From positions 2,670 through 66,669 of IMG/VR virus record IMGVR_UViG_3300005329_000002: 64,000 nt of DNA, one strand, 5' to 3'. Source of the DNA: a virus. This document shows positions 1,713 through 55,855 of this stretch, piece after piece. Below the pieces are notes generated by a model. It did not search any database. It was not told where the DNA came from and saw only the letters and a list, made by a program, of their open reading frames with translations. Made by a program: the position numbers and the translations under genes. The stretch's first letter is position 1. The number at the start of each line of letters is the position of its first letter.

Positions 1713-1723
1713 TCAACCCTCCC

Positions 1724-5246: not shown

Positions 5247-5436
5247 GCTTCTCGCCTAGCCTTTTCAACTCGTCTTGGAATACCGCTGAATCACAGAACG
5301 CATCGAAGGTTGAAATTCTTCTTTGTTTGTCGGCGTCGGGATGCTTGTCGAGCCATGACTGAAATCGCGCCGCGACTTCCCGATGGCGCATTCGTGCCGT
5401 AATTTTCTTTACGACTGGTTTCTTTTTCGCGGTCAT
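5224..5436 (-). CDS. hypothetical protein
   Basis: Fills gap, overlaps both neighbours; basic N-terminus. Confidence 0.5.
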   Translation of the reverse strand: MTAKKKPVVKKITARMRHREVAARFQSWLDKHPDADKQRRISTFDAFCDSAVFQDELKRLGEKHAIGRER

Positions 5437-29564: not shown

Positions 29565-29837
29565 TCAGTGCCGCGAGTTCGTCGGCTCGGTTACGCTTAT
29601 TTCTTGCCACTTCATCACCATCCTTCCGTTGAAATACCCTGTCGGCTCAGTCCGCAAGTGTTCAGGATCACCGAACTTCTTCTCCATTGAAATTACTTCG
29701 TCAGTGCATTCCCAATAGCCAGCGTCACCATCCTTTCTCAGAGCTTTCATGATCGCACCGACCGCTTCCGACATTTCTTCGCCTAGCTCGTCCTTGTCTG
29801 TACCCCGCGCTTCGATCCTGAATCTAGTGATGCCCAT
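29565..29837 (-). CDS. hypothetical protein
   Basis: ORF track, packing. Confidence 0.5.
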   Translation of the reverse strand: MGITRFRIEARGTDKDELGEEMSEAVGAIMKALRKDGDAGYWECTDEVISMEKKFGDPEHLRTEPTGYFNGRMVMKWQEISVTEPTNSRH

Positions 29838-30312
29838 AGAACGCCTGCCTTCGAATTTTCATTAGGAGTCGGCCCAAGTGGTTCTCACCACGATACAAGC
29901 CGTCAACAATTACTTTTCCCCAAAACGTGTCGCCCCAATTGTTCCCCTCGATCAATCGCTCGGGATAAGTGTCGAGAAGCATTTCCAAAAGCGTCTCGTT
30001 TTCCTCCGACTTTCCCAGGAACTTCTTTTTCAAAAGCGATTCCATTACGTCGATCCGCACGTTCTCCCAATCGTGGCGAAGCTCGACCTTTCGGCCCATC
30101 CGTTTTGCTGCGCCAGGAGTTTGAGCCATAGCAATTTCAGACTTCGCACCGAGGTTATGCGTCTTTGCGGCCTGAAAAGCATGTTCGACCGTCGGGAATG
30201 GAATGTTTTCTACCGTGATAGTTACCGGGTAGAAATTGGAGAGAAAGGCGTAATCGCCTGAAAAAGAGGTAATCGAGTTTTGGTAGCCAGGAACAGGAAT
30301 TTCACTACCCAT
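29824..30312 (-). CDS. NADAR (YbiA/DUF1768) family protein
   Basis: FLSNFY, TVEHAFQAAK, AKRMGR, KF, LIEGNNWGDTFWG, GENHLGRLLM.IR. Confidence 0.92.
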   Translation of the reverse strand: MGSEIPVPGYQNSITSFSGDYAFLSNFYPVTITVENIPFPTVEHAFQAAKTHNLGAKSEIAMAQTPGAAKRMGRKVELRHDWENVRIDVMESLLKKKFLGKSEENETLLEMLLDTYPERLIEGNNWGDTFWGKVIVDGLYRGENHLGRLLMKIRRQAFYGHH

Positions 30313-30406
30313 GAAACGGCACCGCCGAGTGGCATACAAAGGTGTCGCCGTCGATCACCCGATCAACTACTGCGTCAAGGTGAGTTGTCAGCAAGGCAAG
30401 TCTCAT
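30305..30406 (-). pseudogene. truncated thermonuclease (SNase) N-terminus, 33 aa
   Basis: GGAGG RBS + MRLALLTTHLDAVVDRVIDGDTFVC...; V.RVIDGDT is the SNase signature; rest absent. Confidence 0.6.
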
Positions 30407-30500
30407 CCGAAACCTCCTAGTCTATTTCCCCATCCGGGGTTGAAATTATTGGGGGCAGGCGTCTTGGAAACCTACCCCCAACGATGAGCGAACTGTGAAA

Positions 30501-30635
30501 TTAGGACTCGGACTGATCGCCGCCCTGTGAACCGCCGTCGGCTGGCGTATCGCCCTCGTCCGTGCCCTCATCGGTTCCGGGCTGCGGAGCGGTGTCCTCC
30601 TGCTCGCCCTCCGGTGGGGTCTGCTCAGTATCCAT
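30501..30635 (-). CDS. 44 aa acidic low-complexity peptide
   Basis: AAAGGGGGTGA RBS; MDTEQTPPEGEQEDTAPQPGTDEG... Confidence 0.5.
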   Translation of the reverse strand: MDTEQTPPEGEQEDTAPQPGTDEGTDEGDTPADGGSQGGDQSES

Positions 30636-30711
30636 GAATCACCCCCTTTGAAATTTTGGGGGTAGCCCTTGCTTGGAGTCGAGGAAGGGGAGTTCCTACG
30701 ATTGACACGAG

Positions 30712-31290
30712 CTACCCCCTTGTGCCGCCGTTAACAATACCACCGTTGTCAAGATTGGTCAACCGGGCACGAGCTTCTGCCGCCCATCGCTCCAAGATTT
30801 CAATTTGTAATCTGAGCGAGGCGTGAGTTTTGATCGGCGAGAAGCGAATCCGAAGAGCTTCTGACCTAGTTCGAAATTCGTATCCACGTTTGCGAAGAAC
30901 GACGTGAAGAGAATTCTGCATGCTCTTGGACGACGCATACCCGAGCGCGCCCCACAGCTTGTCTGAAATTTCCTTAAGGCTTAGCCCTGTCTCGTACAAA
31001 TCGACTATGGCTTGCAGATCGGAATTCTCGATCTTGGCTTTCATCGATTTCCGCGCTGGAATTCCGCGAGCCTCCCTATCCGCGTTTCCGACTTCAAACC
31101 GGACGAGTTCTTGAAATTCCTCAGAAACCCCCGGCGGCGGTGTTTTCAGCCACGGCTCAAAATCGCGGATCGCCCGCTCCGAAAGATTCTTTGATCCCTC
31201 GCGGCGGAGCTTTTCATATTCCCGAGTGTGGTACGCCTTTTCCATCGCGCCGTGCTTCGTCGGCGGGACGTACTTGTTTTTGGTTTTCAC
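30712..31290 (-). CDS. HTH DNA-binding protein
   Basis: IVDLYETGLSLKEISDKL...LRKRGYEFR. Confidence 0.65.
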   Translation of the reverse strand: MKTKNKYVPPTKHGAMEKAYHTREYEKLRREGSKNLSERAIRDFEPWLKTPPPGVSEEFQELVRFEVGNADREARGIPARKSMKAKIENSDLQAIVDLYETGLSLKEISDKLWGALGYASSKSMQNSLHVVLRKRGYEFRTRSEALRIRFSPIKTHASLRLQIEILERWAAEARARLTNLDNGGIVNGGTRG

Positions 31291-31535
31291 GTCACTGACT
31301 CCAAATACGAGATGCCTCGTGCTTCAAGTTCTTTCAAAATTTCTTGCAAGTCGATTTGATATCTGCCGAGCCAAGGAACAGCGACGAGAACAGGCTTGCT
31401 TGGTCGGACGCCGTGAAGGTGCCAACGATCCTTGATATGCCTACAGCGCCGCGCATCTAATTCTTCATTCTGCGCGACAAGTATAAATTGATCCCTGTAC
31501 GCGGCTACGATAAAAGTTGGTTCGGTTTTTTCCAT
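31287..31535 (-). CDS. hypothetical protein
   Basis: GGAGG RBS before ATG 31535. Confidence 0.5.
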   Translation of the reverse strand: MEKTEPTFIVAAYRDQFILVAQNEELDARRCRHIKDRWHLHGVRPSKPVLVAVPWLGRYQIDLQEILKELEARGISYLESVT

Positions 31536-32749
31536 CCCCGCCTCCAAACCATCCGAGTTTTGTAATTGAGCATAAACGGGGAGAACACCATCCCCGCCAA
31601 TAATGCTCTCCCGCTCAAACCGAAAGCATCTACCTCTCGGTTCGTGAAAAAAGATTATCACCGCTGTCAAGGGTAGGACAAGGGTGGGCAAACAGGATAA
31701 AGGATAATTTCAAAAAGCTCCCATTTCGCGGGGTTCCCTCCGTTTCGTTGACCCCTCAGAAAGCCCCCGGCTACATGCGCGTGGGGCACGAGAAGCCTTC
31801 CTGTGCATTCCTAGACCCCATGATCTATCGGGTATGGAGTCCCTTGGCACGAGAGAGAAAGCCCCCGCCTTTTTTGACGAAAAATCCTGTGTATAAGCGC
31901 CCCCGCAGTGTGACGCTGAAAAAGCCCTGCAAATTACAACTTTCCGGTGATAGCAAGATTGAAATTTATTGGGATGGTTGAGCCAAAACTCATATGCTTT
32001 TGAAATTGTATATAGCATCGATATCAAGGTTTCCGAACGACCGTTAGGGTGAGCTTTTCAGAGGGTCGATTTCAGGGAATCTGCGAAGGGATTGAAATGA
32101 AATTCTGCGGGGAGTCCTAGGGTCGAATCCCTGTTCGATCAAGTTTGAAATTCCAGGGTAGCGCTAGGGGTAGTTCTCCCTCTTCGATCCCCTTAGGTTT
32201 TTTCTACTAGTGCAGTGTGTTTGATTGCCCCGAAACAGGAACGACAAGGGTAGGGATACAGTCTGAAATCTAGGCTGCTCTAGCGGGGTTATCTCCCTAC
32301 TGTTCTAGGGGTATTCGGGTGATCCCTCGCGCCGCGAAATTGGGTCTACTTGAAATCCGGATTTTCCCTAGGCCGCATGCGGGATTATGGGTAGTTGTAA
32401 TTGAGCCCTAGCGGGCATGTTTTCGGGGTATCTGAGGGTAGGCCGTTTCTATCGACTCTTGAAATGAAATTAGAGCTTTTCTCCGCGCTATCGGAAGCGC
32501 TTGAAAACGCTCCACCCGAAAGAGGGATTAGGCGGATTTCCCTCGGTGCCGATGGGTCAAGCTCAATGGTTACTTGGCACGAGGATACGAGGATTCCCCT
32601 AGGACGCTCTGAGAGCGTTTCTAAGCCCGCGAAATGGTTCGGCCTAGCTCGACTCTTGCCTAGCCGGAATCGAAGGCTTACGCGCCGAATCAATCGCGAT
32701 TCCCTCGCGCGCGCGGACGTGGCGCGGACGATGCGCAACCCGAACTAAC

Positions 32750-32778
32750 TCGCAACCCTCTTTGAAATTTGCTACTCT
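32750..32778 (+). promoter_or_regulatory. candidate promoter of the plus-strand operon
   Basis: TCGCAA-17 bp-TACTCT with TG extension; predicted start falls at a cUUCGg hairpin. Confidence 0.45.
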
Positions 32779-32783
32779 CTGAT

Positions 32784-33090
32784 TTCCCCTTCGGGGGAAC
32801 GCGCCAGACATAGCAGGAACCGGAGCAGGGATCAACGGCGACCGATTGCTCACTAGGCCGCTAAATAGAGTCTCCGAGCGAATACCGGGAAATGCGCAAG
32901 TGAAGTGAAATTCCCTTCAGGCGGAACGAGGATTCGACCGCGCTGGAAATTGGAATTTCCCCTAGTAGATTCGGGGTAGGCCGTTCAAGTTTGAAGCTTG
33001 CGGAACCGCGCACGGTCGAAGAGGGAGAAACCGAAATCCGTACAGGCGTCTAAGAGCCGAATTCTGCTCGGGGGAGAAAAGTAACTGAAC
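32784..33090 (+). ncRNA. candidate structured leader RNA
   Basis: TTCCCC-TTCG-GGGGAA hairpin; TTCGACCG (32933-40)/CGGTCGAA (33013-20) stem; no convincing ORF; no family recognised. Confidence 0.4.
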
Positions 33091-33132
33091 GATCATTCTC
33101 AGCGTTTCACTAGCCGCTGTTCTCTTCGGCTG

Positions 33133-33470
33133 GACGCTGAGACTCAATAGAGCGATTGACCGAACCATTCCGACAGAAAGGTTCGATCATGACCCAGCGA
33201 GATTTTGAATTCATCGCTTCGATTTTGGCAGAAGCCGAAACCATGATTCACGAAGCTCACGGAGATATCGGCGCTGACCGAATCCGCAATTTCATTCGTC
33301 AGCGTTTCGAAGATGAACTAGCGAAGCGGCATCCCCGTTTCGACCGTGGCCGATTCGACGTAGCCGCTTCACCTATCGCCAATGCCGAACTACGTCAGCG
33401 GATTATCGATTCGCTGAACAAGTAAGCCCAATTCGAAATTCGGTCAATCGTTCTATTGAGTCTCAGCGTT
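33133..33470 (+). repeat. inverted repeat S2 (33133-33164 / 33439-33470), 32 bp, 2 G-U, nested in S1
   Basis: GACGCTGAGACTCAATAGAGCGATTGACCGAA / TTCGGTCAATCGTTCTATTGAGTCTCAGCGTT. Confidence 0.95.
33189..33425 (+). CDS. hypothetical protein (78 aa)
   Basis: CCGACAGAAAGG RBS; MTQRDFEFIA...HPRFDRGRF pattern common in phage early proteins. Confidence 0.75.
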   Translation: MTQRDFEFIASILAEAETMIHEAHGDIGADRIRNFIRQRFEDELAKRHPRFDRGRFDVAASPIANAELRQRIIDSLNK

Positions 33471-33492
33471 TCATCCGACAGAAAGGGAACAA

Positions 33493-34668
33493 GTGTCTAA
33501 GGAATTCCGATACGGAACCAAGCGCTACATGATCGCCGAACTAGTCGAAAACGGGCTCAATCGAATTTCCGTTTTCCAGAAGCTTCGGCCAATGGTAGAG
33601 CAGCAAATTCCGCCAATGGTTTTCAAGCGAAACGTTAAGGGTCAGGGTCGCCAGCCTAAACCGCTTTCGGAGCAATTGATTGAACTCAAAAACGAGATCA
33701 ATCGCGTGTTTGCTCTACTCGGTCATGCCGACGACGGAAGCTTGACCGCTGACGATTCCGAACCAATCGCGGACGTTGAAATTCCGGAAGAGGAAGAGCT
33801 AGAGGAAACGCAAGAGGAAGAAGAAGAAGAGCGGAAGCCCGTAGCGTCAGGGAAGGTCAAGATCAAAAACGAGCTTGAGAAATTCCTTCGGCGCGTCAGA
33901 GAAATTCGGAAGTTCTGCGAAGATAGAGCCGAGCTTTCCGAACCAATCGACTCGATTTCAATTCGTCCCGCGATGGCTGCGGGTCAATTGATTCCAGCGG
34001 GCATTCCTGCCGACGCTCTCTTGGATTCAATGACTATGCATTGGCCAAAAGACGTGCGCAGGGATGCGGGTATCTCAGACTTCGATTTCGTTTCGTTCTC
34101 GCTTGAAATTCTTGCGAAGCGCGGAATTACTGAAGTGATGGGAAAGCCTGTTCACAAGCTCTTCGGTTATGCCTTGATTCTTGCGGAGTGCCGACAACCA
34201 ATCATGTTGATCGGCCCAGCCGGAACGGGGAAGAGTCACCTAGCTAGGCAACTAGCGGATTACCTTGAAATTCCCTACAAAGAAACACCGATGAGTCCTG
34301 GCGCGACGCGCGGAGACTTGCTCGGGCGCCACACTGTAGGCGGATTCATTCCAGCCGCATTTCCTGAAATTTATGCGGGTGGCGGGATCTTCAATTTCGA
34401 GGAAATGGACGCTAGTGATTCCTCGCTTTTGATCGTGCTCAATAACGCTCTTGCGGGAAACAAGCTCTACAATTCCGCGAACGGTGAAGAGTATGAGCGA
34501 AGCGAGGATTTCATCGCAGTATCGACCGCTAACACCTTCGGCCTAGGCGCGAATCGCGACTACACTGCACGAGAGCGATTGGACGCCGCAACAATTGACC
34601 GATGGCGGATGGGTCGAATTTGGATTCCGCTGGACGAGAACGTCGAGGAATCCTTGCTCTACAACTAA
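33493..34668 (+). CDS. MoxR/CbbQ/CobS-like AAA+ ATPase
   Basis: Walker A GPAGTGKS, Walker B FNFEEMD, TANTFG.GA..Y..R..LDAATIDRW. Confidence 0.9.
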   Translation: MSKEFRYGTKRYMIAELVENGLNRISVFQKLRPMVEQQIPPMVFKRNVKGQGRQPKPLSEQLIELKNEINRVFALLGHADDGSLTADDSEPIADVEIPEEEELEETQEEEEEERKPVASGKVKIKNELEKFLRRVREIRKFCEDRAELSEPIDSISIRPAMAAGQLIPAGIPADALLDSMTMHWPKDVRRDAGISDFDFVSFSLEILAKRGITEVMGKPVHKLFGYALILAECRQPIMLIGPAGTGKSHLARQLADYLEIPYKETPMSPGATRGDLLGRHTVGGFIPAAFPEIYAGGGIFNFEEMDASDSSLLIVLNNALAGNKLYNSANGEEYERSEDFIAVSTANTFGLGANRDYTARERLDAATIDRWRMGRIWIPLDENVEESLLYN

Positions 34669-34715
34669 CCAATTAGCCGCTTGAGAACAGCGGCTAGTGA
34701 AGCGCTGAGAATGGA

Positions 34716-35830
34716 CGATTAGTTGAGCTTCACTGAGGGCTAACCTTCGGTCGAATGAAATCCGACAGAGAGGAAATTCTCGTGAAGCGAATCGTCAACA
34801 CCTTCCCTGCTAAGTGTCGCGATTGCGGCGGAATCCTTCCAAAAGGATCGACCGTAAAATGGGCTAAAGGTTTCGGGGTTACTCACCTAACGTGTCGCAA
34901 CCCTGAAATCGTCAATAAGCCAACCAATCCGCCACCTAGCGCTCAGTCAATTTCTAAGCCTGCCAAACAGTATGATCCGAATTGGGTTATCGATTGGCCA
35001 GACTTGAAAGAGACTCTTCGGAACTTCGCTTTTAAGAGTGAATTTCCGAAAGGCATGAATCAGTCACTCAAAAATTACTTTCATGGGAATTTCTCCTTTG
35101 GTAAGGAATGGACGGGTGGCGATATCGAAAACCTCAAGCGCTACATTACTGAGGGTTATCGAACTACTGCAATTCAAGGGTTGGCTGGACTTGTTCCGCC
35201 AATTCGCGAAAAGCGTAGGCTCAAATACGGGGAAGAGGGAGATGAATTCAACTACGATATTGCAATGTCCGGAGACGAAAATTACATGTCTTTTTGGACG
35301 AAAAGAGAGCAGATTCCCGGCGTTAAGCTTTCACTAGAGCTTGACGGTTCAGCGGGATCAACTGACGCTCTAATGAAATATCAACGTTGGATGGCACAAT
35401 CGATTTACGCGCTGGAAGCTGCGGGTGTCGATTGCGAGGTTGAAATCTTCACTCTTTCGCGCAATTTGTTTAGGCCGCAAGCGGCTATTGCGAGAACAGC
35501 GGTTCGAGTGAAAAACAGCGGTGAAATTGCAGACTTCGCGGGAATCTCCGCGATGTTCTCCCCGCTTGCTTTTCGCGGAATCATGTTCGGCTGTTTCTCG
35601 CTTCAAGCTCACGAAATGGGCCTAAGTCAAGTCGGCCACGGTTCAGGCGTCACTAACCGCTGGCGCTGCTATTACAATCCGGAAATTCACGCGATTGTTT
35701 CGGATTGTGATTGGCACGCAACTACGTTCCCCGAAGAGCAACATACGGAGCAATTCAAGCAAGCAATCCGCGATATGAAATCGCAAGTAGGAGACTGAGG
35801 GCTTAGCCCTCAGTAAAGCTCAACTAATCG
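34716..35830 (+). repeat. inverted repeat S3 (34716-34743 / 35803-35830), 28 bp, extendable by 9 bp
   Basis: CGATTAGTTGAGCTTCACTGAGGGCTAA / TTAGCCCTCAGTAAAGCTCAACTAATCG (one C-A); CCTTCGGTC pairs GACTGAGGG after one bulge. Confidence 0.95.
34782..35798 (+). CDS. vWA-like partner of the AAA+ ATPase, with N-terminal Zn ribbon
   Basis: CRDC...HLTC; LSLELDGSAGS (degenerate MIDAS), ALEAAGVDCEVEI, VKNSGE; adjacency to MoxR-like ATPase. Confidence 0.65.
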   Translation: MKRIVNTFPAKCRDCGGILPKGSTVKWAKGFGVTHLTCRNPEIVNKPTNPPPSAQSISKPAKQYDPNWVIDWPDLKETLRNFAFKSEFPKGMNQSLKNYFHGNFSFGKEWTGGDIENLKRYITEGYRTTAIQGLAGLVPPIREKRRLKYGEEGDEFNYDIAMSGDENYMSFWTKREQIPGVKLSLELDGSAGSTDALMKYQRWMAQSIYALEAAGVDCEVEIFTLSRNLFRPQAAIARTAVRVKNSGEIADFAGISAMFSPLAFRGIMFGCFSLQAHEMGLSQVGHGSGVTNRWRCYYNPEIHAIVSDCDWHATTFPEEQHTEQFKQAIRDMKSQVGD

Positions 35831-35880
35831 AGTGAATTTCATTGAGCGCTTCCCTAACTCTGACAGAAGGGAAACGCAAA

Positions 35881-36060
35881 ATGACACGTTCCGAATTCCA
35901 GAATCGTTGTGACGAAATCGCGACTGAGGAAGCGAATGAAAATTGGGATTCCGCTTCCGTACTTCGCAGGATCGCAGGCGAGATTGGAACGGTAGCGCTC
36001 GACTTCGACGCTGACGTTTCAATGCATGCCGATTTCGGAGAGGTTATCGAGAATGCTTAG
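35881..36060 (+). CDS. small acidic hypothetical protein (59 aa)
   Basis: GACAGAAGGGA RBS. Confidence 0.65.
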   Translation: MTRSEFQNRCDEIATEEANENWDSASVLRRIAGEIGTVALDFDADVSMHADFGEVIENA

Positions 36061-36289
36061 GGAACTCGATAGCCGCGAAAACGATCGAATTACGGTTCGG
36101 CTTTTGTGGAACGATTCCGCAAAAATCGATCCGACAGTGAGCGAATTTCAAGTGAAGGTGATCGATGCGAAAGAGGGAGAGCGTTTCTCAATTTCACTCG
36201 ATACCTTCAACGCTGCTAGGGAGGCTTATTTTCATCCCTACGGTGTCCGCGATTCGCTACTGAAAAGCGGGAAAGTAGCAGCAAACTAG
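36053..36289 (+). CDS. hypothetical protein (78 aa)
   Basis: RELDSRENDRITVRLLW...AREAYFHPY; overlaps previous stop. Confidence 0.65.
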   Translation: MLRELDSRENDRITVRLLWNDSAKIDPTVSEFQVKVIDAKEGERFSISLDTFNAAREAYFHPYGVRDSLLKSGKVAAN

Positions 36290-36929
36290 AGCGCTCCAAT
36301 TCCAGGGAAGCGCTCAATGAAATTCATTCGGCAGAAAGGGAATTCCTAACCGGGCTAGGGTAGCTACCGGAGGGTCGCCCCTGCGCGCGTATCGGGGAAT
36401 TCCATTTCAAATTTCAGAAGTATTTACCTAGGATTTCGCTGGTATTTCGCGCCAGTTTAACGTCAGAATTTCAGGATCGGAATGAACGCCGAATTGAATG
36501 CGGCGCGGTGCAAACCAACCATGCATTCGGCCAACTGAAATTCCGGAAGGTGCTGAAGCTCTGAACATGGGCCACTTGCTTTAATTTGAGCCGCAATTGC
36601 GTTCCGGTCTGATCCGCCTGGAAGGGGAAGCTTCCTGCGCTCTGCGGCGGGAGCGCGTGAGGCGATCTAGGCGCAATTGCGGCTCGGGTGAGCTATACCC
36701 CCTCGCGACGGCCTTCAAACCCCTCAGACGGGCTTAGGTGGCCTTGTGCATGCCATCCCTGCCTGCGCATTTCAACGTACAGGCACATAGGAGCCTTTCT
36801 GACGCCCTCCTAGCTCGGCTGCGGGTCAGGAGTCGCACGACTGATCGCGGAGCCTTAGAAGGGCTTACAGGCGCTCGGCGCGGCGCTCGGTTTTTCGGCG
36901 CTCGACGCATACCCCACCCAACGCAAAGA

Positions 36930-36945
36930 GCCGGGTTTCCCCGGC
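36930..36945. terminator. hairpin at convergence of plus- and minus-strand early transcription
   Basis: GCCGGG-TTTC-CCCGGC. Confidence 0.5.
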
Positions 36946-37080
36946 CCCTCGCGTTTCTCCGACAGAAACTTTGAAATTTAGTCGGCTAGCACTCCCAATT
37001 GCCTACATTGAACGCGAGCCAGTCCTGAAATGTGCGCATGTGCTGGAACGTGAACCACAGGCATTCCCACGAGTAGCGGA

Positions 37081-37410
37081 TCATGATTGAACCTCGGGGA
37101 ACTCGGGCAGAATGTAGCTCGCGTCCATTGTGTTCTTGGCCACGATTGTCAGCCCGAATTCCTCATCGAGAATTTCAAGAATCTTCACTAGCTCGGGAGC
37201 GTGAAGGTAGCTCGTCCATGCGTGTCGGCGCTCGTCCCATCGAAAGCTCTCGCCTTTCAGAAATTCCACGACTCCCGGCTCTCTGAGTCCGCCGCCGCGA
37301 ATCATCGCGAGCGGTGCGCCACTTGGAAAGCCGCGAGCGTAGATGATCTTGGTGCTGCGCTTGCCTTTGAAATTCTTTGGTGTGTTGATCTTCGTCATGG
37401 TGGCGAGCAT
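37081..37410 (-). CDS. hypothetical protein
   Basis: FLKGESFRWDERRHAW (HARP-like pattern). Confidence 0.55.
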   Translation of the reverse strand: MLATMTKINTPKNFKGKRSTKIIYARGFPSGAPLAMIRGGGLREPGVVEFLKGESFRWDERRHAWTSYLHAPELVKILEILDEEFGLTIVAKNTMDASYILPEFPEVQS

Positions 37411-37616
37411 CAGTTGAGGCTGAAAAAGAACTTGACGCCGAACTCGCGCCAGCACTCGACGTGATCGGTGCATGCGTTCGTCGGCATAAGGATTCGCATG
37501 TATTCGACATACTCGTCCGTGAGCCTGCACTGAGCGGCAATTCCCATTTCCTGCCCCTCCACTTCGACTGTCTCAAGAATCTCGATCATTGTGTTCCCCT
37601 TTCTGTCGGTAGCGAC

Positions 37617-37645
37617 AGCCTATCAAATTTCTATTCGGCTGTCAA
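37617..37645 (-). promoter_or_regulatory. sigma70-type promoter
   Basis: TTGACA-17-TAGGCT with TG extension; followed by CCGACAGAAAGG RBS. Confidence 0.8.
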
Positions 37646-38089
37646 GGGGGAATTTGAAATCAGCCATTGAAGCGTTTCCCTGAGATAACCAAGGCGAACG
37701 ATCCGCTCTGGAAGCTGGTTCATCCGATCCTTTTCAACGGCCTCTTTCATCTTGCGGATTTCACGGCGCATCGAGCTAACGAGCAGCCGTGCCTGATGAA
37801 ATTCTAGCTCGCTCACGATCCCAACCAAAGTATCACGAGGTAAGCGACCACAAGCCAGAACAGGCAGAGCCAGAGAAGAACTGTCCGCAATTCCATTAGC
37901 CCTCGTCCTTCCGGCACTCGTTCCAATACTGCCAGAGCCAGAGCGCACAAGCGAGAATTGCAATTACACGAACCGTGGTGTTGCTGAAATGCGGCCCGAT
38001 TACGTTGTGCTGCCACCAAGTGTAATTCGGGTGAATGACTTCCACGAGGTTGAAAGCGAACAGGAATGCTGCGAGCCATTTTCCCCACT

Positions 38090-38344
38090 TCATGACTTGG
38101 CCTTTGCCTTCTTCGACTTCTTGACCTTTTTCACGGGCTTGTTCCACGAGCGCGGATTCTCAATGAATCCATCGCCAGCAAGCTCGGTGTATTCGCTCTG
38201 ATCGCGCAAGCGCTGAAGCTCTGAAATCGCGTTGCGGCAAGCGTAGCGAATGATCTTGTCCTTGTTGCGAAGCTTCCACCAGCGCTTTACCTGCCCGCGA
38301 AAGTGCTTTTGCAATTTCGTTTTCCGTGCGCCCTTGACCTTCAT
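38090..38344 (-). CDS. basic hypothetical protein
   Basis: K/R-rich ORF, packing. Confidence 0.55.
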   Translation of the reverse strand: MKVKGARKTKLQKHFRGQVKRWWKLRNKDKIIRYACRNAISELQRLRDQSEYTELAGDGFIENPRSWNKPVKKVKKSKKAKAKS

Positions 38345-38475
38345 GACTCGATCCTTCGAAGCGCTGCGATCAACGTCCTGATTTCACTCGCTCGACGCTC
38401 GCGGTGTGGCCAGAGCGCTGCGATCCTTTCCCTGAAGCTCGTTCCCATGATGATCCTTTCTGTCGGTGTTCCACC

Positions 38476-38504
38476 ACTCTAGCAAATAGAAATTCGTTTG
38501 TCAA
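38476..38504 (-). promoter_or_regulatory. sigma70-type promoter
   Basis: TTGACA-17-TAGAGT. Confidence 0.85.
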
Positions 38505-38641
38505 GTCTTTCCTTTGTTCCTCAGAACCCATCTGCCATTCGTGAATTTGTAAACGCGCCCACACGAACAGCGCTTGACTAGGGGATGATCCGTGTTGAGA
38601 ACGTACCTCGTGACAACGAATTTATGCTTGTGATTCTTCAT
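38501..38641 (-). CDS. leaderless small protein (46 aa)
   Basis: ATG 7 nt from the -10 box; MKNHKHKFVVTRYVLNTDHPLVKRCSCGR... Confidence 0.55.
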   Translation of the reverse strand: MKNHKHKFVVTRYVLNTDHPLVKRCSCGRVYKFTNGRWVLRNKGKT

Positions 38642-38647
38642 GCCGTG

Positions 38648-38676
38648 ATCCTAGCATAATGAAATTCGGTTGTCAA
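38648..38676 (-). promoter_or_regulatory. sigma70-type promoter
   Basis: TTGACA-17-TAGGAT. Confidence 0.85.
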
Positions 38677-38877
38677 GTACCAAAATGAAATGACCCTCCC
38701 GCCGTAGTGAGAGGGCCATTTCTCTGAGCCGCCAGAAAGGTGTAAAGAACGGCTCAGTCTTTCCAATCCACAATTTCATATCATCAATGTTGGTCTTACG
38801 CTACCGGGAACGACCCGGATTTTTCACGTCAGTCCGCGTAGCTGCCATGATCCTAATTTACGCTTCTAAATTCAACT

Positions 38878-39198
38878 CTAACCTCCTGGTGCGCATGCCG
38901 TAGGCGTCACCGTGACCGAGACGTGCGGATTCCATGCCCCGACATAGATCGCCGTGACGTGCGTGTAGTCCGGCGAATCCGCTCGGGTTACATGGTGCCC
39001 GTCAACGACAATCTCCATAATTTCACAAGAGTAGTCTGCCGTGAAATTCGTTGCATTGTCGTTGAACGTGAAGCTGTGAACAGTCTCAGTCGGTGCCGAC
39101 GAAAGAGCGGGCTTGCTCTGCGCGTCATGAATCGCGCTGAAATACAGAGCCACGAAACAGAACGCTGCGAGAATGAGTCCGATCTTCTTCAATTTCAT
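38878..39198 (-). CDS. secreted hypothetical protein
   Basis: AAAGGGGGT RBS; MKLKKIGLILAAFCFVALYFS signal peptide. Confidence 0.6.
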   Translation of the reverse strand: MKLKKIGLILAAFCFVALYFSAIHDAQSKPALSSAPTETVHSFTFNDNATNFTADYSCEIMEIVVDGHHVTRADSPDYTHVTAIYVGAWNPHVSVTVTPTACAPGG

Positions 39199-39364
39199 AC
39201 ACCCCCTTTCGGCTTGTTGTAGTGCGATCCGCCCCAAGCATACCCACGCCCTCGGCGGCACAAGTGCAATCCTCCGTGGCCATACTCGCGTGTGCAAATA
39301 TAACCCTCGGGTGAGCGAGCTAGACAACGCCCACCAAGCAGCATTTCAAGGACGCGACCGAGCA

Positions 39365-39664
39365 TCAGTTGTCCCTCGCAATTTCACTGCGCCTCGCGTC
39401 GAGAAGAGCCTCCACGAGCATTTCAGCGTGCATGGTGTCGCCTGCAATCGAGCCGAGAATCAAGCTGATTGGAATTGGCTGCTGGCCCAACGATCCCATC
39501 ACAACGGCGGATAGAACAATGATGGCCTTCAGTCGCATCGCCACGTCGCCAACCGTGAATTCCTCTTCTCGCTCGGCGGCAAGCTCGTCAACGACCTTCT
39601 TGATTTCGTTGACCGCCTCACCCAAGTTCTTGCCATCCATATCAGGCATTTGAAATTCTGACAT
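39365..39664 (-). CDS. hypothetical protein
   Basis: GACAGAAAGGGG RBS downstream of promoter. Confidence 0.6.
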   Translation of the reverse strand: MSEFQMPDMDGKNLGEAVNEIKKVVDELAAEREEEFTVGDVAMRLKAIIVLSAVVMGSLGQQPIPISLILGSIAGDTMHAEMLVEALLDARRSEIARDN

Positions 39665-39695
39665 TTCGATCCCCTTTCTGTCTGATCGGTAATTC

Positions 39696-39724
39696 ACTCT
39701 AGCATCCCTAGGAGGGATTGTCAA
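39696..39724 (-). promoter_or_regulatory. sigma70-type promoter with ATCCCTAGGAGG spacer motif
   Basis: TTGACA-17-TAGAGT. Confidence 0.85.
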
Positions 39725-39960
39725 GCACGAAAGTTCCGCCTAGCTCAACCACTTCCTCAGCCGTGAGCGGGTGGTGATTACAGTCGCCGCAATTGTCCGG
39801 CTGCTTGCAGACAGGACAAAGCTCAGTGCCCTCGGGCCACTGAATTTCGGAATTCATCTGAGCCTGCTGGCGCTCGGCTGCGCTCCTGTAATCCATTTCA
39901 AGCTGAACATCGTGCTTCTGCTCGTGTTCCTGCTGCGCTCGCCGTGCCCTCTCGATTTCC

Positions 39961-40188
39961 TCACGCATTGCGCACCCCCAACTGAAGATCGCACTCAAGC
40001 TTGAACTGAAATTCGCCTGCGATGAAGCGAAGGTGTTCAAGCTCTTCGATGGCATGCTTCAACTCGTCGCGTGTCGGCTCGTGATCCGGCTCGGAGAAGA
40101 TTTCAGCGACCTCCCCGAATTCCTCCGCGACCTTTGCGAGCCAGACGGACGGCGGGTAATCCTTGGCTGTCCACTTCTTGCGGTTCAT
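39961..40188 (-). CDS. MazG-like NTP pyrophosphohydrolase
   Basis: WLAKVAEEFGEVAE...IEELEHL (EExGE..EELxD-like). Confidence 0.6.
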   Translation of the reverse strand: MNRKKWTAKDYPPSVWLAKVAEEFGEVAEIFSEPDHEPTRDELKHAIEELEHLRFIAGEFQFKLECDLQLGVRNA

Positions 40189-40216
40189 GCTGCCCCCTTT
40201 CTGTCGGTGTCGCCAC

Positions 40217-40245
40217 ACTCTAGCAGAATGAAATTCGCTTGTCAA
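40217..40245 (-). promoter_or_regulatory. sigma70-type promoter
   Basis: TTGACA-17-TAGAGT. Confidence 0.85.
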
Positions 40246-40248
40246 GTC

Positions 40249-40512
40249 TTACCAACCTCGACTGCGAAAGGAATCATCCCGAACGCTGCTCCAACCCTGA
40301 TTTGTAATTGGCTCGATCTGCCCTTCGTCAAGAAGCTCGCTGCCCGCGAACACTGCGTACTTGCCGTCCTTGTGCGCGAGAACGTGAATATGGTGGAATT
40401 TCAGTTTCATCACTTCGCCGTCCTCTAGCTCTTCTAGCTCGCACTCAAGCTCGTCAACGTAACCGCGTGTCCGCTCGACAAGCGCTCTCAGTTGTCCTCT
40501 AGTGATCTTCAT
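40249..40512 (-). CDS. hypothetical protein
   Basis: GGAGG RBS. Confidence 0.55.
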   Translation of the reverse strand: MKITRGQLRALVERTRGYVDELECELEELEDGEVMKLKFHHIHVLAHKDGKYAVFAGSELLDEGQIEPITNQGWSSVRDDSFRSRGW

Positions 40513-40796
40513 TTCCGCCTCCCTATTCGCTTTTCAATTTCAATCACTGCGGGGTAAACCTCCGGTGCTGTGGGATCGCCGTGCTGGTGTTGCTCTGTGA
40601 CGTTGAGATTGTAATTGTGCTGATCCCTGTGGAATGCGTTTGCGATATCCCGCGCTGCTCCGATCATCGCATCCACGAGGAACATCAGAATTCCAATCCC
40701 CATGATCCCGTAAAACGTTTCATGCCAACTCGCTCCGAACCCTTGAAAAAGAACTACCAACACGAGCGTCGTCAATAGAAATTGTCTCATTCGCAA
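40509..40796 (-). CDS. membrane protein (2 TM)
   Basis: Two hydrophobic segments; AGGAGG RBS. Confidence 0.6.
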   Translation of the reverse strand: MRMRQFLLTTLVLVVLFQGFGASWHETFYGIMGIGILMFLVDAMIGAARDIANAFHRDQHNYNLNVTEQHQHGDPTAPEVYPAVIEIEKRIGRRK

Positions 40797-40818
40797 ACCT
40801 CCTAGGGATAGTTCTCTG

Positions 40819-40854
40819 AAAAAAACAGAGGGGAGGGAATTTCACCCTCCCCTC
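40819..40854 (-). terminator. rho-independent terminator
   Basis: GAGGGGAGGG/CCCTCCCCCTC stem followed by TGTTTTTTT on the minus strand. Confidence 0.8.
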
Positions 40855-40868
40855 GACGGAACCCTCAC

Positions 40869-41630
40869 CTAGCGCTTGCGAGCGGCCTTGCGTCCTGCCT
40901 TCTTAGCCGCTGCGCGGCCTCCTGAGCGCTTCGTGGCCTTAGCCTTGGTCGTGCTGCCCTTTGGCCGTCCGCGCCCGCGAGAAGCCTTCTGAGTGCCCTT
41001 GCTGGCCGACTTCCGCGAGCCTGCCCGCTTGAACTTCCCTTCGCCCGTTCCGCCAGTGCCGTACTCGACGCGATTCTTGGACTCGGTGTGCTGTCCAGTC
41101 GCCATCGCGAACGCCCAAGCGTTTCTTGAAATTAGGTAGCGAAGGTAATCCTGCCGCTCGGACTTGTTGCGAGTGCGGCCCTGCCGCGTCCGCTTCGGCA
41201 CGAGCTTGTCGATCTTCGGAAGCAGCGCCTTGTAAGCCTGCTCACGATTTCCCTTCGCCTTGCGAAGAGCCTTGACGATCACGTCCGGCACGGAACCCTC
41301 GCGGGGATTCCAACCGTCCGTCTTGCTGAATTTCACGTTGCCGAGCGTGTTGCGTCCGCCCTTGTTGCCGTTGGACGTGGACGCGCTCGCCTTGCGGGTA
41401 GTCGCCTTGCGCGTGGTCGCCTTCTTTGCTGGCCGTCCGCGCTTCGCAACTGCCTTGCTCGCCTTCGTCGCCTTTTTCACGACGCGCTTGCCGCGAGCCT
41501 TCGTGCCGCTGCCGTTCGATGCCTGAGCGATCAGCTTCTTAAGCTCAGCGCTCGACTCTGCGGCGCGAATTTCCTTTACCGGGACTCCGGCCTGCTTCGC
41601 CTTGTCCCTCAGAGCCTTCATGCCTGCCAT
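40869..41630 (-). CDS. histone-like Lys/Arg/Ala-rich DNA-binding protein
   Basis: KKATTRKATTRKA repeats, KRGRP/RGRGRP AT-hook-like motifs flanking a folded core; own promoter and terminator. Confidence 0.7.
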   Translation of the reverse strand: MAGMKALRDKAKQAGVPVKEIRAAESSAELKKLIAQASNGSGTKARGKRVVKKATKASKAVAKRGRPAKKATTRKATTRKASASTSNGNKGGRNTLGNVKFSKTDGWNPREGSVPDVIVKALRKAKGNREQAYKALLPKIDKLVPKRTRQGRTRNKSERQDYLRYLISRNAWAFAMATGQHTESKNRVEYGTGGTGEGKFKRAGSRKSASKGTQKASRGRGRPKGSTTKAKATKRSGGRAAAKKAGRKAARKR

Positions 41631-41681
41631 TGCTGGCCTCCCTTCGTTGACTTCGGGCTTGCTTGCTCAATCACGCTGGAC

Positions 41682-41710
41682 AATTTATCAGCCCTCGCAG
41701 AATTTGTCAA
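41682..41710 (-). promoter_or_regulatory. sigma70-type promoter
   Basis: TTGACA-17-TAAATT. Confidence 0.75.
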
Positions 41711-41719
41711 GGGGTAAAT

Positions 41720-42112
41720 TTATGGCCCAACCATAAGGGTTTGCTTGTCGCCTGCTACCTCGACTGTCATCTCAGCGATGCCGTCCTCAGTATCAATTGA
41801 CGTGACCCACACATCGCCAAACTGCAATTCGCCTCGATCTATCGGGCCTGCCCAAACCGCTGCAACCTTCGACCGCAAGTAACCCATGTGCATGCCCGCG
41901 TAAGGGTTATCGAAGTGCTTCGCGACGATCACCTTAATTGCATTCTCGTCGTGGAGGTTTTCTGGCTCACGCTCCAATTTCACTTTGAACGGAACGTGAT
42001 GCCTCATCATCCTTCGGGTTGGCTTCGTCACCCGATACTGAATGCCGACAACCGATAGCTCAAGCTTCTTGAATTTCACTTTGCCTTTTTTCTTGGGCTT
42101 CTTAGCTGCCAT
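41720..42112 (-). CDS. HIRAN domain protein
   Basis: VVGIQYR, LEREPENLHDENAIKV, MGYL. Confidence 0.85.
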   Translation of the reverse strand: MAAKKPKKKGKVKFKKLELSVVGIQYRVTKPTRRMMRHHVPFKVKLEREPENLHDENAIKVIVAKHFDNPYAGMHMGYLRSKVAAVWAGPIDRGELQFGDVWVTSIDTEDGIAEMTVEVAGDKQTLMVGP

Positions 42113-42350
42113 CGCTGCTCGGCCTTCCTGGTCGCAAGTCCGCGATGATCGCAAGAATTTCACGCGCCTGATCTGGACTCCAAAGCCTGACCTGATTCTG
42201 GCCGCGCTTCACTCGTGCCGCTTTTGGAATTCGACCTTGCCGCTCAAGCTGCCTGATCCTAGACGGATCACGCTTCACGAATCGAGCTAGCTCAGCGATG
42301 GTGTAATAGTCCCTGAACTTCTTCGGCTTTAGAAATTCTAAGTCCCTCAT
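42102..42350 (-). CDS. MerR-like HTH protein
   Basis: YTIAELARFVKRDPSRIRQLERQGRIP...RLWS. Confidence 0.8.
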   Translation of the reverse strand: MRDLEFLKPKKFRDYYTIAELARFVKRDPSRIRQLERQGRIPKAARVKRGQNQVRLWSPDQAREILAIIADLRPGRPSSDGS

Positions 42351-49916: not shown

Positions 49917-50147
49917 TCAGGAGTCATGTTGTTCTGCCTTCCTTTTACGCTTGCTGAAATTGAAGAGATTGAGAATCCGATCCCCGCAACAGTCACCAAC
50001 GTCAGCACTGTGAGTGTAATTCGAATGCGCGAATCGGTTTGTGCCTTTGCCTTTGGGAATGTAGGTGAGCTTGGCCACGAAGGTTTCACATGGCCGCTTG
50101 CAAATGTCGCAACGTTTAGTCGTCTCCCTCGCCATCATCCTCCCCAA
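49917..50147 (-). CDS. Zn-finger-like protein (Lsr2 N-domain-like pattern)
   Basis: MARETTKRCDIC...ADVGDCC. Confidence 0.45.
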   Translation of the reverse strand: MGRMMARETTKRCDICKRPCETFVAKLTYIPKGKGTNRFAHSNYTHSADVGDCCGDRILNLFNFSKRKRKAEQHDS

Positions 50148-51210
50148 GCTCTTGTGTAATTGTGTTGTCCTTGATTGCGCTGACTAGCTCTGCTCGCATT
50201 AGGTGTTCATCGCCGCCGTCGTCAGGGCCATTGAGCCACTTCTGAAATTGCTTGTAGGTTCCCTTCCACTCATGATCCTCAACGTCAACGTAGCTGTAGC
50301 CCCGAGCCGTCTGCTCGATCAACCCGTCCTCTAGCCCAAGCTGAATAATTTCAGAAGCTAGATCGATCGAATTCGTCTCCGCACTGAAAATGAAAGAGCC
50401 TTCACGGTAAGGCCGCGTGGACTTATCCTTTTCAGCGCGAACTTGAATCCACCTACCCGTTTGAATTTCGGATTCCACAAGCTTAGCACCACGAGCGACC
50501 TTACGCTTAGCTCGAACTTTAGTGCCCTTGCGCATTTCAATTCGGCCTGTTGCATAGTAGCGAAGCGCTTTTCCACCGCTCGTAGTTTTCGGATTGCCGA
50601 ATTTAATTCCGATATCTGTGCGCTCTTGGTTTGTCCAGAGAAAGAGAGTCTTTCTATTAACCGTTGTAATTCGTCGTAGGGCACGGCTCATCATCCTCGC
50701 TTGTCCGGCAACCCTTGGCTCTTCCCTTGGGTCTTTTGAAGTTTCCTCTAGCGGCACGAGACTCGTCACCGAGTCCATTCCAATTACTTCTATCGAGTGT
50801 TCCTCTGCCGCTTTCGCTAGCAGCATCATGACGGCCACTGCATCATCCCCGTTTTCAGGATGAAGCGTCATGAGAATTTCAGGATCACCGCCAAGCTTTG
50901 CGAACCACTTCGGATCAAAGGAATGTTCAGGATCAACGAGGGCACATAAATTCCCCCGAGCCTGAGACTCCGCAAGAGTGCGATAGAGAATGTATGACTT
51001 GCCCGCCGATTCGTCACCGTAAAGCTCGTAGTGACGCCCAAGTGCCCAACCCCCTCCTGTTACTCGATCTAGGACAAGTGACCCCGTTGGTATCCGTACA
51101 ATTTCAAAGTACGGATCAGAGCCGAGCTTCACCCCTGCGTTCAGCGTTGAGTTAATTTCATGAACGAGGGATGCGGCTGCACTCAGTTTGGCCTTCTTCT
51201 TTTTCACCAA
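50116..51210 (-). CDS. recA: RecA-like recombinase
   Basis: IPTGSLVLD, ELYGDESAGKS, DPEH, DSV, QARMMSRALR, NQER..IG..FGNP.TTSGGKALRYYA. Confidence 0.95.
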   Translation of the reverse strand: MVKKKKAKLSAAASLVHEINSTLNAGVKLGSDPYFEIVRIPTGSLVLDRVTGGGWALGRHYELYGDESAGKSYILYRTLAESQARGNLCALVDPEHSFDPKWFAKLGGDPEILMTLHPENGDDAVAVMMLLAKAAEEHSIEVIGMDSVTSLVPLEETSKDPREEPRVAGQARMMSRALRRITTVNRKTLFLWTNQERTDIGIKFGNPKTTSGGKALRYYATGRIEMRKGTKVRAKRKVARGAKLVESEIQTGRWIQVRAEKDKSTRPYREGSFIFSAETNSIDLASEIIQLGLEDGLIEQTARGYSYVDVEDHEWKGTYKQFQKWLNGPDDGGDEHLMRAELVSAIKDNTITQELGEDDGEGDD

Positions 51211-55523: not shown

Positions 55524-55855
55524 TACAGATTGTTCTGAAGCTTCTTGACTGACGGTGCCGATTCCTTTGCACCCTTGAGAACGCGAGCCGCTACACGCAC
55601 CGATGCGGGCTTGGCTGAAATCTTCACGTCCTCACCCGTCTTGGGGTTGCGGCCCATGCGAGCCTTCTGCTTCTTCCGCAATTTCGGCTCGATCTGAACG
55701 AGGTTGCCGATCTTCACGCGCTCGCAATTTGCAATGTGATCGCCAACAACCTCACCCAACGTTTCAAAGAAGTGCCGAACGTCAGACTTGGTATAGCCAG
55801 ACGCCTCTGCAATTTCAGCAACAAGCTCAGTCTGCTTCACGAGTGGTAGTGCCAT
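55523..55855 (-). CDS. HU/IHF-family DNA-binding protein
   Basis: KQTELVAEIAE, ARMGRNPKTGEDVKISAK. Confidence 0.92.
   Translation of the reverse strand: MALPLVKQTELVAEIAEASGYTKSDVRHFFETLGEVVGDHIANCERVKIGNLVQIEPKLRKKQKARMGRNPKTGEDVKISAKPASVRVAARVLKGAKESAPSVKKLQNNL

Follow-up and report, generated by a model that had tools for sequence, protein, structure and literature searches.

In this study, we analyzed a small operon on the plus strand of a soil phage genome, the IMG/VR record IMGVR_UViG_3300005329_000002, which carries direct terminal repeats and is rated complete; the stretch under analysis, hereafter the window, covers 64,000 of its 66,669 bases (positions 2,670 to 66,669). Our main finding is that every cistron unit of this operon lies within its own long-range inverted repeat, that the complementarity of the arms is kept by compensatory change in distant relatives, and that the 5' arms share a short core, TTCAYT, in which mismatches accumulate. 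We judge the chances to be somewhat better than even that the four stems are messenger RNA (mRNA) processing or stability stems, cut at this core by the ribonuclease III (RNase III) of the host. The stems, with lengths in nucleotides (nt), are the following:

33083-33124 / 34683-34724, plus strand: stem S1, 42 nt, 88% complementary, enclosing orf78 and the AAA_5 gene
33134-33164 / 33439-33469, plus strand: stem S2, 31 nt, 97% complementary, enclosing orf78 and nested in S1
34716-34743 / 35803-35830, plus strand: stem S3, 28 nt, 96% complementary, enclosing the DUF7192 gene
35829-35855 / 36304-36330, plus strand: stem S4, 27 nt, 96% complementary, enclosing orf59 and orf87

The genes that they enclose are these:

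33189-33425, plus strand: orf78, small protein without a family
33493-34668, plus strand: AAA_5 ATPase of 391 amino acids, whose C-terminal half matches phrog_249 (CobS-like, labelled 'porphyrin biosynthesis')
34782-35798, plus strand: DUF7192 protein of 338 amino acids, with a GTG start at 34782, as in database cluster P0001
35881-36060, plus strand: orf59, conserved small protein
36026-36289, plus strand: orf87, conserved small protein, overlapping orf59

Stems S1 to S4 are the four best and longest inverted repeats of the entire window, with pairing scores of 24.5-32, against 16 for the fifth-best real pair and 19 for the best of 20 dinucleotide-preserving shuffles. The minimum-free-energy fold of the 3,361-nt operon RNA holds all four (34, 29, 34 and 27 pairs, respectively), and their long-range duplex energies, -45 to -68 kcal/mol, are well below those of the local hairpins considered further on. 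Each arm matches just its own partner in the genome, and every repeat pair is unique. The arms are placed closely around the genes and overlap an open reading frame (ORF) by its stop codon at most: the 5' arms end 5-38 nt ahead of a common leader, and the 3' arms begin 4-14 nt past the stop codon, the distance being 4 nt for DUF7192 (S3) and 14 nt for AAA_5 (S1). Neighboring stems abut, since the outer 9 nt of the S1 3' arm are shared with the S3 5' arm and the S4 5' arm directly adjoins the S3 3' arm with an overlap of 2 nt, while the S4 3' arm continues straight into the leader-like sequence GGCAGAAAGG. The leader itself, (T)CCGACAGAAAGG, has its Shine-Dalgarno sequence 6-9 nt ahead of the start codon and precedes every plus-strand cistron, there without a promoter:

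33169-33181, plus strand: leader with Shine-Dalgarno sequence, TCCGACAGAAAGG, 7 nt ahead of the orf78 ATG
33474-33486, 34761-34773, 35859-35871 and 36327-36339, plus strand: further copies of the same leader

The same arrangement was identified in other genomes through the DUF7192 protein, which has 40 database relatives; an alignment of 26 of them, used for the locus search, led to two distant loci in IMG/VR and seven in metagenomes (L009 to L017). As lone queries in IMG/VR, the AAA_5 and DUF7192 proteins found no locus. Identity to the window is 67% for L011, 43-48% for L012-L014 and 31-32% for L015, L009 and L010; in L016 and L017, only the 3' end of the gene is present. In eight of the nine related loci, the architecture recurs with arms of other sequence, in the form of ORF-bracketing inverted repeats of 21-35 nt whose 5' arms end 5-38 nt ahead of the leader and whose 3' arms start 4-45 nt past the stop. 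Adjacent arms lie within -9 to +4 nt of one another at all 13 junctions, including the two of the window, and DUF7192 is bracketed in seven of the eight loci that have both its flanks. We also searched IMG/VR with the leader pattern CATTCCGACAGAAAGG, which returned five loci; one is L009, and the other four were judged to be chance matches, having neither an excess of TGAAATT nor operon stems.

The strongest property of these stems is that their arms change together. Across 23 stems of the window and its relatives, the 674 positions comprise 630 Watson-Crick pairs, 20 G.U, 11 A.C and 13 other combinations; between loci, the arms bear little sequence relation to one another, and still each remains complementary to its partner. 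An RNAalifold analysis of seven complete S3-bracketed cistrons (1,227 columns) recovered the long-range stem de novo, pairing columns 5-28 with columns 1200-1223. In this stem, 18 of 23 pairs include at least one sequence changed on both sides with pairing kept, although the L010 3' arm is misaligned by MAFFT, which yields many apparently broken cells and inflates the counts of broken pairs. This compensatory pattern implies selection on the pairing itself and cannot stem from a recombinase site or from decaying relics. Moreover, the arms are 0.2-1.6 kilobases (kb) apart; consequently, the pairing must occur in a single-stranded transcript. Outside the core, G.U pairs outnumber A.C pairs on the plus strand by 14 to 3 (two-sided p = 0.013), which favors plus-strand RNA over DNA as the level at which the arms pair.

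These observations bear directly on the possibility that the repeats act in DNA and have no RNA function, being relics or tools of cassette exchange, in which modules enter hairpins by insertion or are exchanged through recombination between short sequences in common, or else invertible segments. Several traits recall such exchange: several modules are bordered by direct repeats of the inner arm, module order varies, the phage encodes RecA, and a 13-mer common to S1 and S2 resembles a duplication. We nevertheless consider a purely DNA-level explanation very unlikely. Relics would not maintain pair-specific complementarity through compensatory change at 31-50% protein identity, arms separated by such distances cannot pair in duplex DNA, and neither the uniqueness of the repeat pairs nor the surplus of G.U over A.C outside the core fits it. 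In addition, the complete 66,669-base-pair (bp) genome has no match to PF00589 (tyrosine recombinase) at E <= 0.1, and a serine recombinase was likewise not found there; the contigs of four runs contain no joint or inverted form of the repeats, which is weak evidence.

Special attention was given to what the stems have in common. In an unsupervised motif search with one site per sequence, applied to the 23 5' arms, the output was TTCAYTGAG(G/C) with 7.52 bits, whereas 30 shuffled arm sets averaged 5.51 bits and did not exceed 5.89. In the window, it selected the following sites:

33106-33115, plus strand: S1 core, TTCACTAGCC
33143-33152, plus strand: S2 core-like sequence, CTCAATAGAG, looser
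34729-34738, plus strand: S3 core, TTCACTGAGG, with a C.A mismatch at 34731
35838-35847, plus strand: S4 core, TTCATTGAGC

These are exactly the four sites that the original prediction, made by a model from the letters of the window, had aligned, including the looser CTCAATAGAG of S2; the motifs and coordinates that it quoted are all exact (TTTCACTAGCCGCT at 33105, CTTCACTGAGGGCT at 34728, TTTCATTGAGCGCT at 35837 and CTCAATAGAGCGAT at 33143). TTCAYT has 65 plus-strand copies in the 64 kb, yet it occurs in three of the four window 5' arms, which is very unlikely by chance given so few copies. Counted from the outer helix end, the core begins at 6-17 bp in 21 of 23 arms, or after about one helical turn; the exceptions are S1 of the window, at 23 bp, where the outer 12 bp are imperfect, and the weak S5 of L015, at 1 bp.

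We then anchored 22 stems on the core, leaving out S5 of L015 and placing the anchor of the L010 S1 by eye at TTCAAT. At offsets 0-5 of the 5' strand, the counts are T 17, T 22, C 18, A 18, any base, and T 18 of 22, and each column flanking the core shows 3-5 pair types and is paired in 19-22 of the 22. TTCAnT is thus kept, in stems both homologous and paralogous, at 31-67% protein identity with covarying flanks, so that the outcome named in the original prediction as its refutation, a core not conserved across homologous stems, is not what we found. The core is A/U-rich and often mismatched, and a G/C-rich inner segment follows it. Although it covers just 138 of the 674 positions, it contains 16 of the 44 non-canonical pairs and 8 of the 11 A.C or C.A pairs, 7 of those on the C or the A of TTCA, and the identical C.A mismatch is present in S3 of the window, L011, L013 and L010, four of the seven orthologues. 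A conserved core with such a pile-up of mismatches is the look expected, from the sequences, of a recognition or cleavage determinant. The earlier proposal of a common determinant of this kind is thus supported as regards the maintenance of the core across stems and the clustering of mismatches in it; that cuts fall in the core is a prediction.

Could the core instead be the address for a sequence-specific factor other than generic RNase III? Such a factor would be a host or phage double-stranded-RNA-binding protein or nuclease that processes, regulates or packages the cistron modules, and the UUCAYU core with its C.A mismatch would be its target. The core is conserved amid covarying surroundings, the mismatch hotspot has fixed positions, the distance from the core to the outer end is roughly constant (6-17 bp, and 23 in S1 of the window), and the operon contains conserved small proteins of unknown function, orf59, orf87 and orf78. 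On the other hand, a scan of 82 phage ORFs detected neither a nuclease nor an RNA-binding domain, the core is degenerate (just TTCAnT, at 17-22 of 22), and its similarity is perhaps partly due to the leader-proximal word ATTTCATT. We therefore regard a factor of this type as unlikely. A bolder version, to which we give even less credence, would have self-contained RNA modules (5' arm, leader, gene, 3' arm) that carry the UUCAYU/C.A address for a dedicated factor instead of generic RNase III, are excised by it as panhandle or even ligated circular mRNAs, and can be shuffled between phages through these shared sequences; if true, this module system would be an RNA-level counterpart of gene cassettes.

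As a separate matter, we discarded the core as a promoter -35 element: 16 nt separate it from the leader in S4, 21 in S2 and 27 in S3, against a fixed 32 nt in the genuine promoters, and a -10 element is missing. Another short word of this genome stands out by number. TGAAATT/AATTTCA is its most over-represented 7-mer, found 103 times on the plus strand and 98 times on the minus strand (201 in total, against about 8 expected); the copies are evenly spread and have no extended context, and the relatives look likewise rich in GAAATT words. A protein of the phage or the host may bind or recognize TGAAATT.

The original prediction had further proposed that the long-range stems compete with local hairpins, and these alternatives are present and stable at all four locations:

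33097-33142, plus strand: local 5' hairpin, -25.2 kcal/mol, pairing a segment of the S1 5' arm with the outer S2 5' arm
34674-34696, plus strand: local hairpin TAGCCGCT/AGCGGCTA on the S1 3' side, -14.7 kcal/mol
35794-35814, plus strand: local hairpin ACTGAGGGC/GCCCTCAGT on the S3 3' side, -16.1 kcal/mol
36289-36315, plus strand: local hairpin GAGCGCT/AGCGCTC on the S4 3' side, -15.1 kcal/mol

For each of the four, none of 200 shuffles folds as well, and on the S2 3' side there is no local hairpin (159 of 200 shuffles fold as well). The first of them, in which 33097-33106 pairs with 33133-33142 at nine of ten positions by Watson-Crick rules, competes with both S1 and S2. The 5' half of the 34674-34696 hairpin is a direct repeat of the inner S1 5' arm, the DUF7192 stop codon TGA (35796-35798) lies within the 35794-35814 hairpin, and the 36289-36315 hairpin overlaps the final base of the orf87 stop codon.

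In the relatives, we required a perfect hairpin of at least 7 bp whose loop has 3-15 nt and whose pairs include the first bases of the 3' arm. Eight of the 23 stems have one (S1, S3 and S4 of the window; S3 of L012; S1 and S3 of L013; S3 of L015; S3 of L009), compared with a background of 2.2% of 6,534 sampled positions. A duplex-energy test against random 40-nt windows, which is noisy, singled out 5 of the 23 stems at the 0.05 level. The remaining 15, including all of those of L011 and L017 a-c and most S4 stems, have no such hairpin; it follows that the hairpins are not essential to the architecture and are an optional addition to it. Where they occur, their design is consistent: in seven of eight, the 5' half is a direct repeat of the inner 5' arm, and in seven of eight, it spans core offsets 3-6 to 10-12, that of L013 S1 lying at the inner end of the arm. 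The hairpin half of L009 S3 is one base off the repeat and pairs perfectly where the distal arm has a C.A mismatch. A stop codon lies inside the hairpin half in S3 of the window, L012 and L015 and is touched by it in S4 of the window. Judging from these sequences, a switch from local hairpins to long-range stems is plausible, and it is more likely that the local hairpins serve as 3'-terminal hairpins after cleavage.

The 5' region of the operon offers a further set of alternatives. The last bases of the S2 3' arm and the next 4 nt repeat the 13-mer TCTCAGCGTTTCA of the S1 5' arm, as had been noted previously; its copies are at 33097 and 33461, and the window has no other. Because of this duplication, four segments are able to pair in four ways: 33097-33109 (S1 5'), 33133-33142 (outer S2 5'), 33461-33473 (outer S2 3' plus TTCA) and 34697-34709 (S1 3'). 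One of the alternative pairings would bracket AAA_5 alone, as S1 does in L009, L010 and L013, which suggests that orf78 arrived as an inserted module and that part of the S1 arm was duplicated in the process.

Each module has its own pair-specific stem, with the core as the sole common part, and the small genes recur in different settings. Relatives of orf59 are found inside stems in L011, L017c, L013 and L010, and those of orf87 in L011, L016 and L009; the two share one stem in the window and L011 and are single elsewhere. Weak relatives of orf78 lie in stems behind DUF7192 in L015 (E = 4e-5) and L017 (E = 2e-3), unlike the orf78 of the window, which precedes AAA_5. The orf78, orf59 and orf87 families, for which neither Pfam nor PHROG gave a match, travel with the operon as separate stem-enclosed modules whose order and combination vary between phages.

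Based on these results, we propose the following mechanism, in which the strand and the co-transcription of the stems are inferred from gene orientation. S1 to S4 would pair within a plus-strand polycistronic mRNA of a lytic-type phage, each stem linking the 5' untranslated region of a cistron, or pair of cistrons, to the sequence just past its stop codon. The transcript would then fold into a row of stem-closed loops with abutting stems, similar to the processing stems of 16S/23S ribosomal RNA (rRNA). A double-strand-specific endonuclease, most likely the RNase III of the host, would cut the 21-42-bp stems in the UUCAYU core and free monocistronic mRNAs with 5' ends 20-45 nt ahead of the common CCGACAGAAAGG leader. 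The ends of these mRNAs would be protected by the residual G/C-rich inner stem, a 5'-3' panhandle; where the direct-repeat copy exists, a local 3'-terminal hairpin ending at the cut would take over this protection, and the 3' end of the released mRNA is predicted to be the 3' edge of that hairpin.

Five reasons make RNase III the most likely enzyme. First, the stems are of the right size: a double-stranded RNA helix of about two turns (at least about 20 bp) is available in all 23 of them, since they measure 21-42 bp and 650 of their 674 positions are Watson-Crick or G.U. Second, there is the precedent of phages T7 and T3; third, RNase III cuts at long-range mRNA duplexes are documented; fourth, the phage encodes no RNase III; and fifth, the arrangement is like that of an rRNA operon. 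The fourth reason comes from a family search of the genome, and the same search detected the family in 8-10 of 14 control genomes, including all bacteria among them. In the 82 ORFs scanned, there are likewise no Pfam RNase, RNA polymerase or RNA ligase domains. Together with the host-type promoters of the phage, this means that processing would fall to host enzymes.

The same structural evidence would also be expected if the stems form and are not cut. In that case, they would close each cistron into a 5'-3' loop, insulate its folding, place its stop codon beside its own ribosome-binding site to aid re-initiation, and shield it from both 5'-end-dependent and 3' exonucleolytic decay. The geometry suits this idea, given that a 5' arm 5-38 nt from the leader and a 3' arm 4-45 nt from the stop bring stop codon and ribosome-binding site together. 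Against it, RNase III would be expected to act on near-perfect helices of 21-42 bp in nearly all bacteria, and simple closure needs no conserved central core with a conserved mismatch. In icaR of S. aureus, according to PMC3868564, pairing between the 5' and 3' untranslated regions controls translation and is itself cut by RNase III, so this example speaks for the closure of cistrons and at the same time indicates that closure and cleavage are not exclusive. We consider uncut stems possible, though rather doubtful.

It is important to consider that several points weigh against processing by RNase III at the core. The promoter scan identified no promoter for the plus-strand operon. In L014, at 43% identity, AAA_5 and DUF7192 are 31 nt apart with the leader alone between them and no bracketing stems, from which it follows that the stems are dispensable for these genes, though old and conserved. 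Over all positions, G.U and A.C pairs number 20 and 11 (p = 0.15), and the core/non-core split used above was chosen after seeing the data. Orthologous stems are not independent, owing to shared ancestry, and the motif statistics therefore overstate the number of observations. The similarity of the cores may also be partly compositional, given the abundance of AATTTCA/TGAAATT in this genome, or partly inherited from the leader region, as the sequence just ahead of many leaders reads (A)ATTTCATT. Finally, cleavage, cut position and enzyme are all deduced from sequence; we know of no need of bacterial RNase III for a sequence like UUCAYU, and the conserved core could point to another factor instead.

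Regarding L014 itself, an ordinary local hairpin (GGCCGACTG/CAGTCGGCC) follows DUF7192. This locus (1-5648) also has a perfect 19-nt inverted repeat, 1859-1877/5343-5361, that might enclose the whole operon.

The window sequence was also seen in other sequencing runs; the contigs of four of them show no differences from it, no joints and no ends. One run, from wastewater and labelled metagenomic RNA-Seq (though rated 'probably DNA'), contains a contig of 239 nt identical to 34571-34807, a segment that covers the S1 3' arm, the S3 5' arm and the DUF7192 leader; this contig does not distinguish RNA from DNA. The other runs with window sequence are rhizosphere DNA.

The genomic setting is that of a tailed phage with its own replication genes, as indicated by Pfam and PHROG matches. 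These include virion and packaging genes (terminase large subunit, portal, capsid, baseplate hub and Baseplate_J) and replication genes (DnaE-type polymerase, DnaB-like helicase, primase, RecA and HU). With no integrase or resolvase found, the phage is probably strictly lytic. The minus strand carries nearly all of its genes, and the operon, at 33.1-36.35 kb, is the sole plus-strand gene island, flanked by ORF-free stretches of about 1.1 kb (32028-33083) and about 0.7 kb (36340-37080). A blastn comparison of 32000-37000 with the GenBank phage collection, an Rfam search of 30000-42000 at E <= 1, and a scan of the window for transfer RNA and transfer-messenger RNA genes gave no match. Proteins encoded on the minus strand include these:

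29824-30336, minus strand: NADAR-domain protein
41720-42160, minus strand: HIRAN-domain protein
50116-51207, minus strand: RecA
55523-55852, minus strand: HU-like DNA-binding protein

The early genes of the minus strand use the same leader in a different way. Their promoters are sigma-70-like, TTGACA-17-TAGAGT, at 40245, 39724 and 38504, and a further one near 37650, TTGACA-17-TAGGCT followed by the common leader, was read by eye:

40245-40196, 39724-39673, 38504-38455 and about 37650-37598, minus strand: early promoter regions of shared design

This design is fixed: TTGACA, 17 nt, TAGAGT (TAGGCT in the last), 7-13 nt, (C)CGACAGAAAGG, and the start codon 6-8 nt further on. Since each early gene has one promoter before the same leader, the stems may be the alternative route of the operon to monocistronic messages, which suggests two routes to the common leader within one phage, a promoter per gene on the minus strand and a stem per gene on the plus strand.

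Two non-coding regions border the operon. The first comes after the last stem and has no ORF behind it:

36341-36375, plus strand: conserved non-coding element composed of ATTCCTnACCGG, a small GGGT-loop hairpin and TACCGGAGG

Its relatives lie behind leader-like sequence in L011 (1737-1772), L009 (6603-6637), L015 (2048-2082) and L017 (1407-1441). Their hairpin has 3-4 bp and a stem that varies by locus (CTA/TAG, CAT/ATG, ATAT/ATAT, ACAA/TTGT), and downstream of the element, L009 and L017 have a hairpin that, with its T run, resembles a terminator. For this element, RNAalifold gave no convincing consensus fold and Rfam no match. The second region, upstream of the operon, is ORF-poor and 1.1-1.4 kb long in three phages (window 32028-33083, L009 about 2336-3678, L010 about 2100-3511). 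In the window, it is rich in repeated short words (TTGAAATGAAATT three times, GGGTAGGCCGTT twice, and CTAGGGGTA-like words) and contains the long-range complementary pairs 32121-32136/32924-32939 and 32174-32187/33016-33029, the latter of 14 nt and perfect. This region may serve as an origin or in regulation, or may encode a large non-coding RNA.

We compared the operon with other systems of repeats and hairpins. As an invertible segment (inverton or shufflon), it was rejected because serine and tyrosine recombinases are absent, the repeat pairs differ from one another in sequence, and the contigs show no inverted joints, the last point being weak. A transposon or miniature inverted-repeat element, which would be present in several copies with terminal repeats in common and target-site duplications beyond them, was discarded because the arms match their own partners only and the direct repeat is internal to the repeat pair. 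As for intrinsic terminators, which consist of a G+C-rich hairpin and a U tract behind it, the scan of 31500-41000 lists none of the local hairpins, which are followed by GTGAAGCG, AAAGCTCA and AATGAAAT.

The local hairpins just past the stop codons had also been loosely likened to cassette recombination sites. The attC site of integrons, which follows each ORF, is an imperfect local hairpin 57-141 nt long that contains conserved R''/R' boxes, and in integron arrays, the upstream copy repeats the distal half of the hairpin. The two systems share a row of promoter-less ORFs, each with a hairpin-forming site behind it, and a variable order of modules. The resemblance does not hold beyond this: the phage has neither an integrase nor RYYYAAC/GTTRRRY boxes, its hairpins are 21-27 nt long, absent at 15 of 23 stems and without an R-box-like consensus, their sequences track the stem core instead of a common R box, it is the proximal half of the hairpin that recurs upstream, and the long-range complementarity is pair-specific and covarying. 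An attC array was therefore rejected.

The processing stems of rRNA operons are closer. As in the phage, a long-range helix of a length suited to RNase III surrounds each functional unit, the units stand in a row, and their stems lie close together; PMC6212723 lists sites of RNase III on both sides of 16S rRNA and on the 3' side of 23S rRNA. By analogy, the phage stems would be cut in the same manner. They differ in that the units are protein-coding cistrons with ribosome-binding sites, and in having the UUCAYU core and, often, a competing hairpin.

In cellular mRNAs, RNase III targets of the long-range kind have been mapped recently. In B. subtilis, the enzyme cuts intramolecular duplexes of 10-36 bp, with strands up to 505 nt apart, at a 2-nt offset (PMC11780869), and long-range intramolecular targets in E. 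coli are described in PMC6212723. Those targets are scattered single cases with spans of at most 505 nt, whereas in the phage operon they are systematic and conserved, with spans of up to about 1.56 kb, every cistron unit bracketed, abutting arms and a shared core.

The cutting of phage operons by host RNase III is equally well established. In the early region of T7 and T3, host RNase III divides the transcripts made by the host polymerase into monocistronic mRNAs. It acts between genes, at sites with internal mismatches or loops at the scissile position, and leaves the upstream RNA with a protective end hairpin. The T7 sites are local intergenic hairpins; here, the strands are 0.2-1.6 kb apart and enclose a gene, and a cut, unlike one in T7, would leave both ends of a single mRNA paired. 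In non-exhaustive full-text keyword searches of open-access text, such a stem-per-cistron operon for protein-coding genes was not described. What is new here with respect to the known systems is that every cistron unit has its own long-range stem, with abutting arms, a shared motif, a recurrent mismatch and an optional 3' hairpin. Provided that cleavage is confirmed, the operon would be of solid interest for RNA-processing and phage biologists: it would give compact rules for turning one transcript into several stable monocistronic messages, their ends paired, of use in synthetic operon design; 23 natural variants for studying how sequence and mismatch position RNase III; and a comparison, within one phage and with the same leader, of a promoter per gene and a stem per gene.

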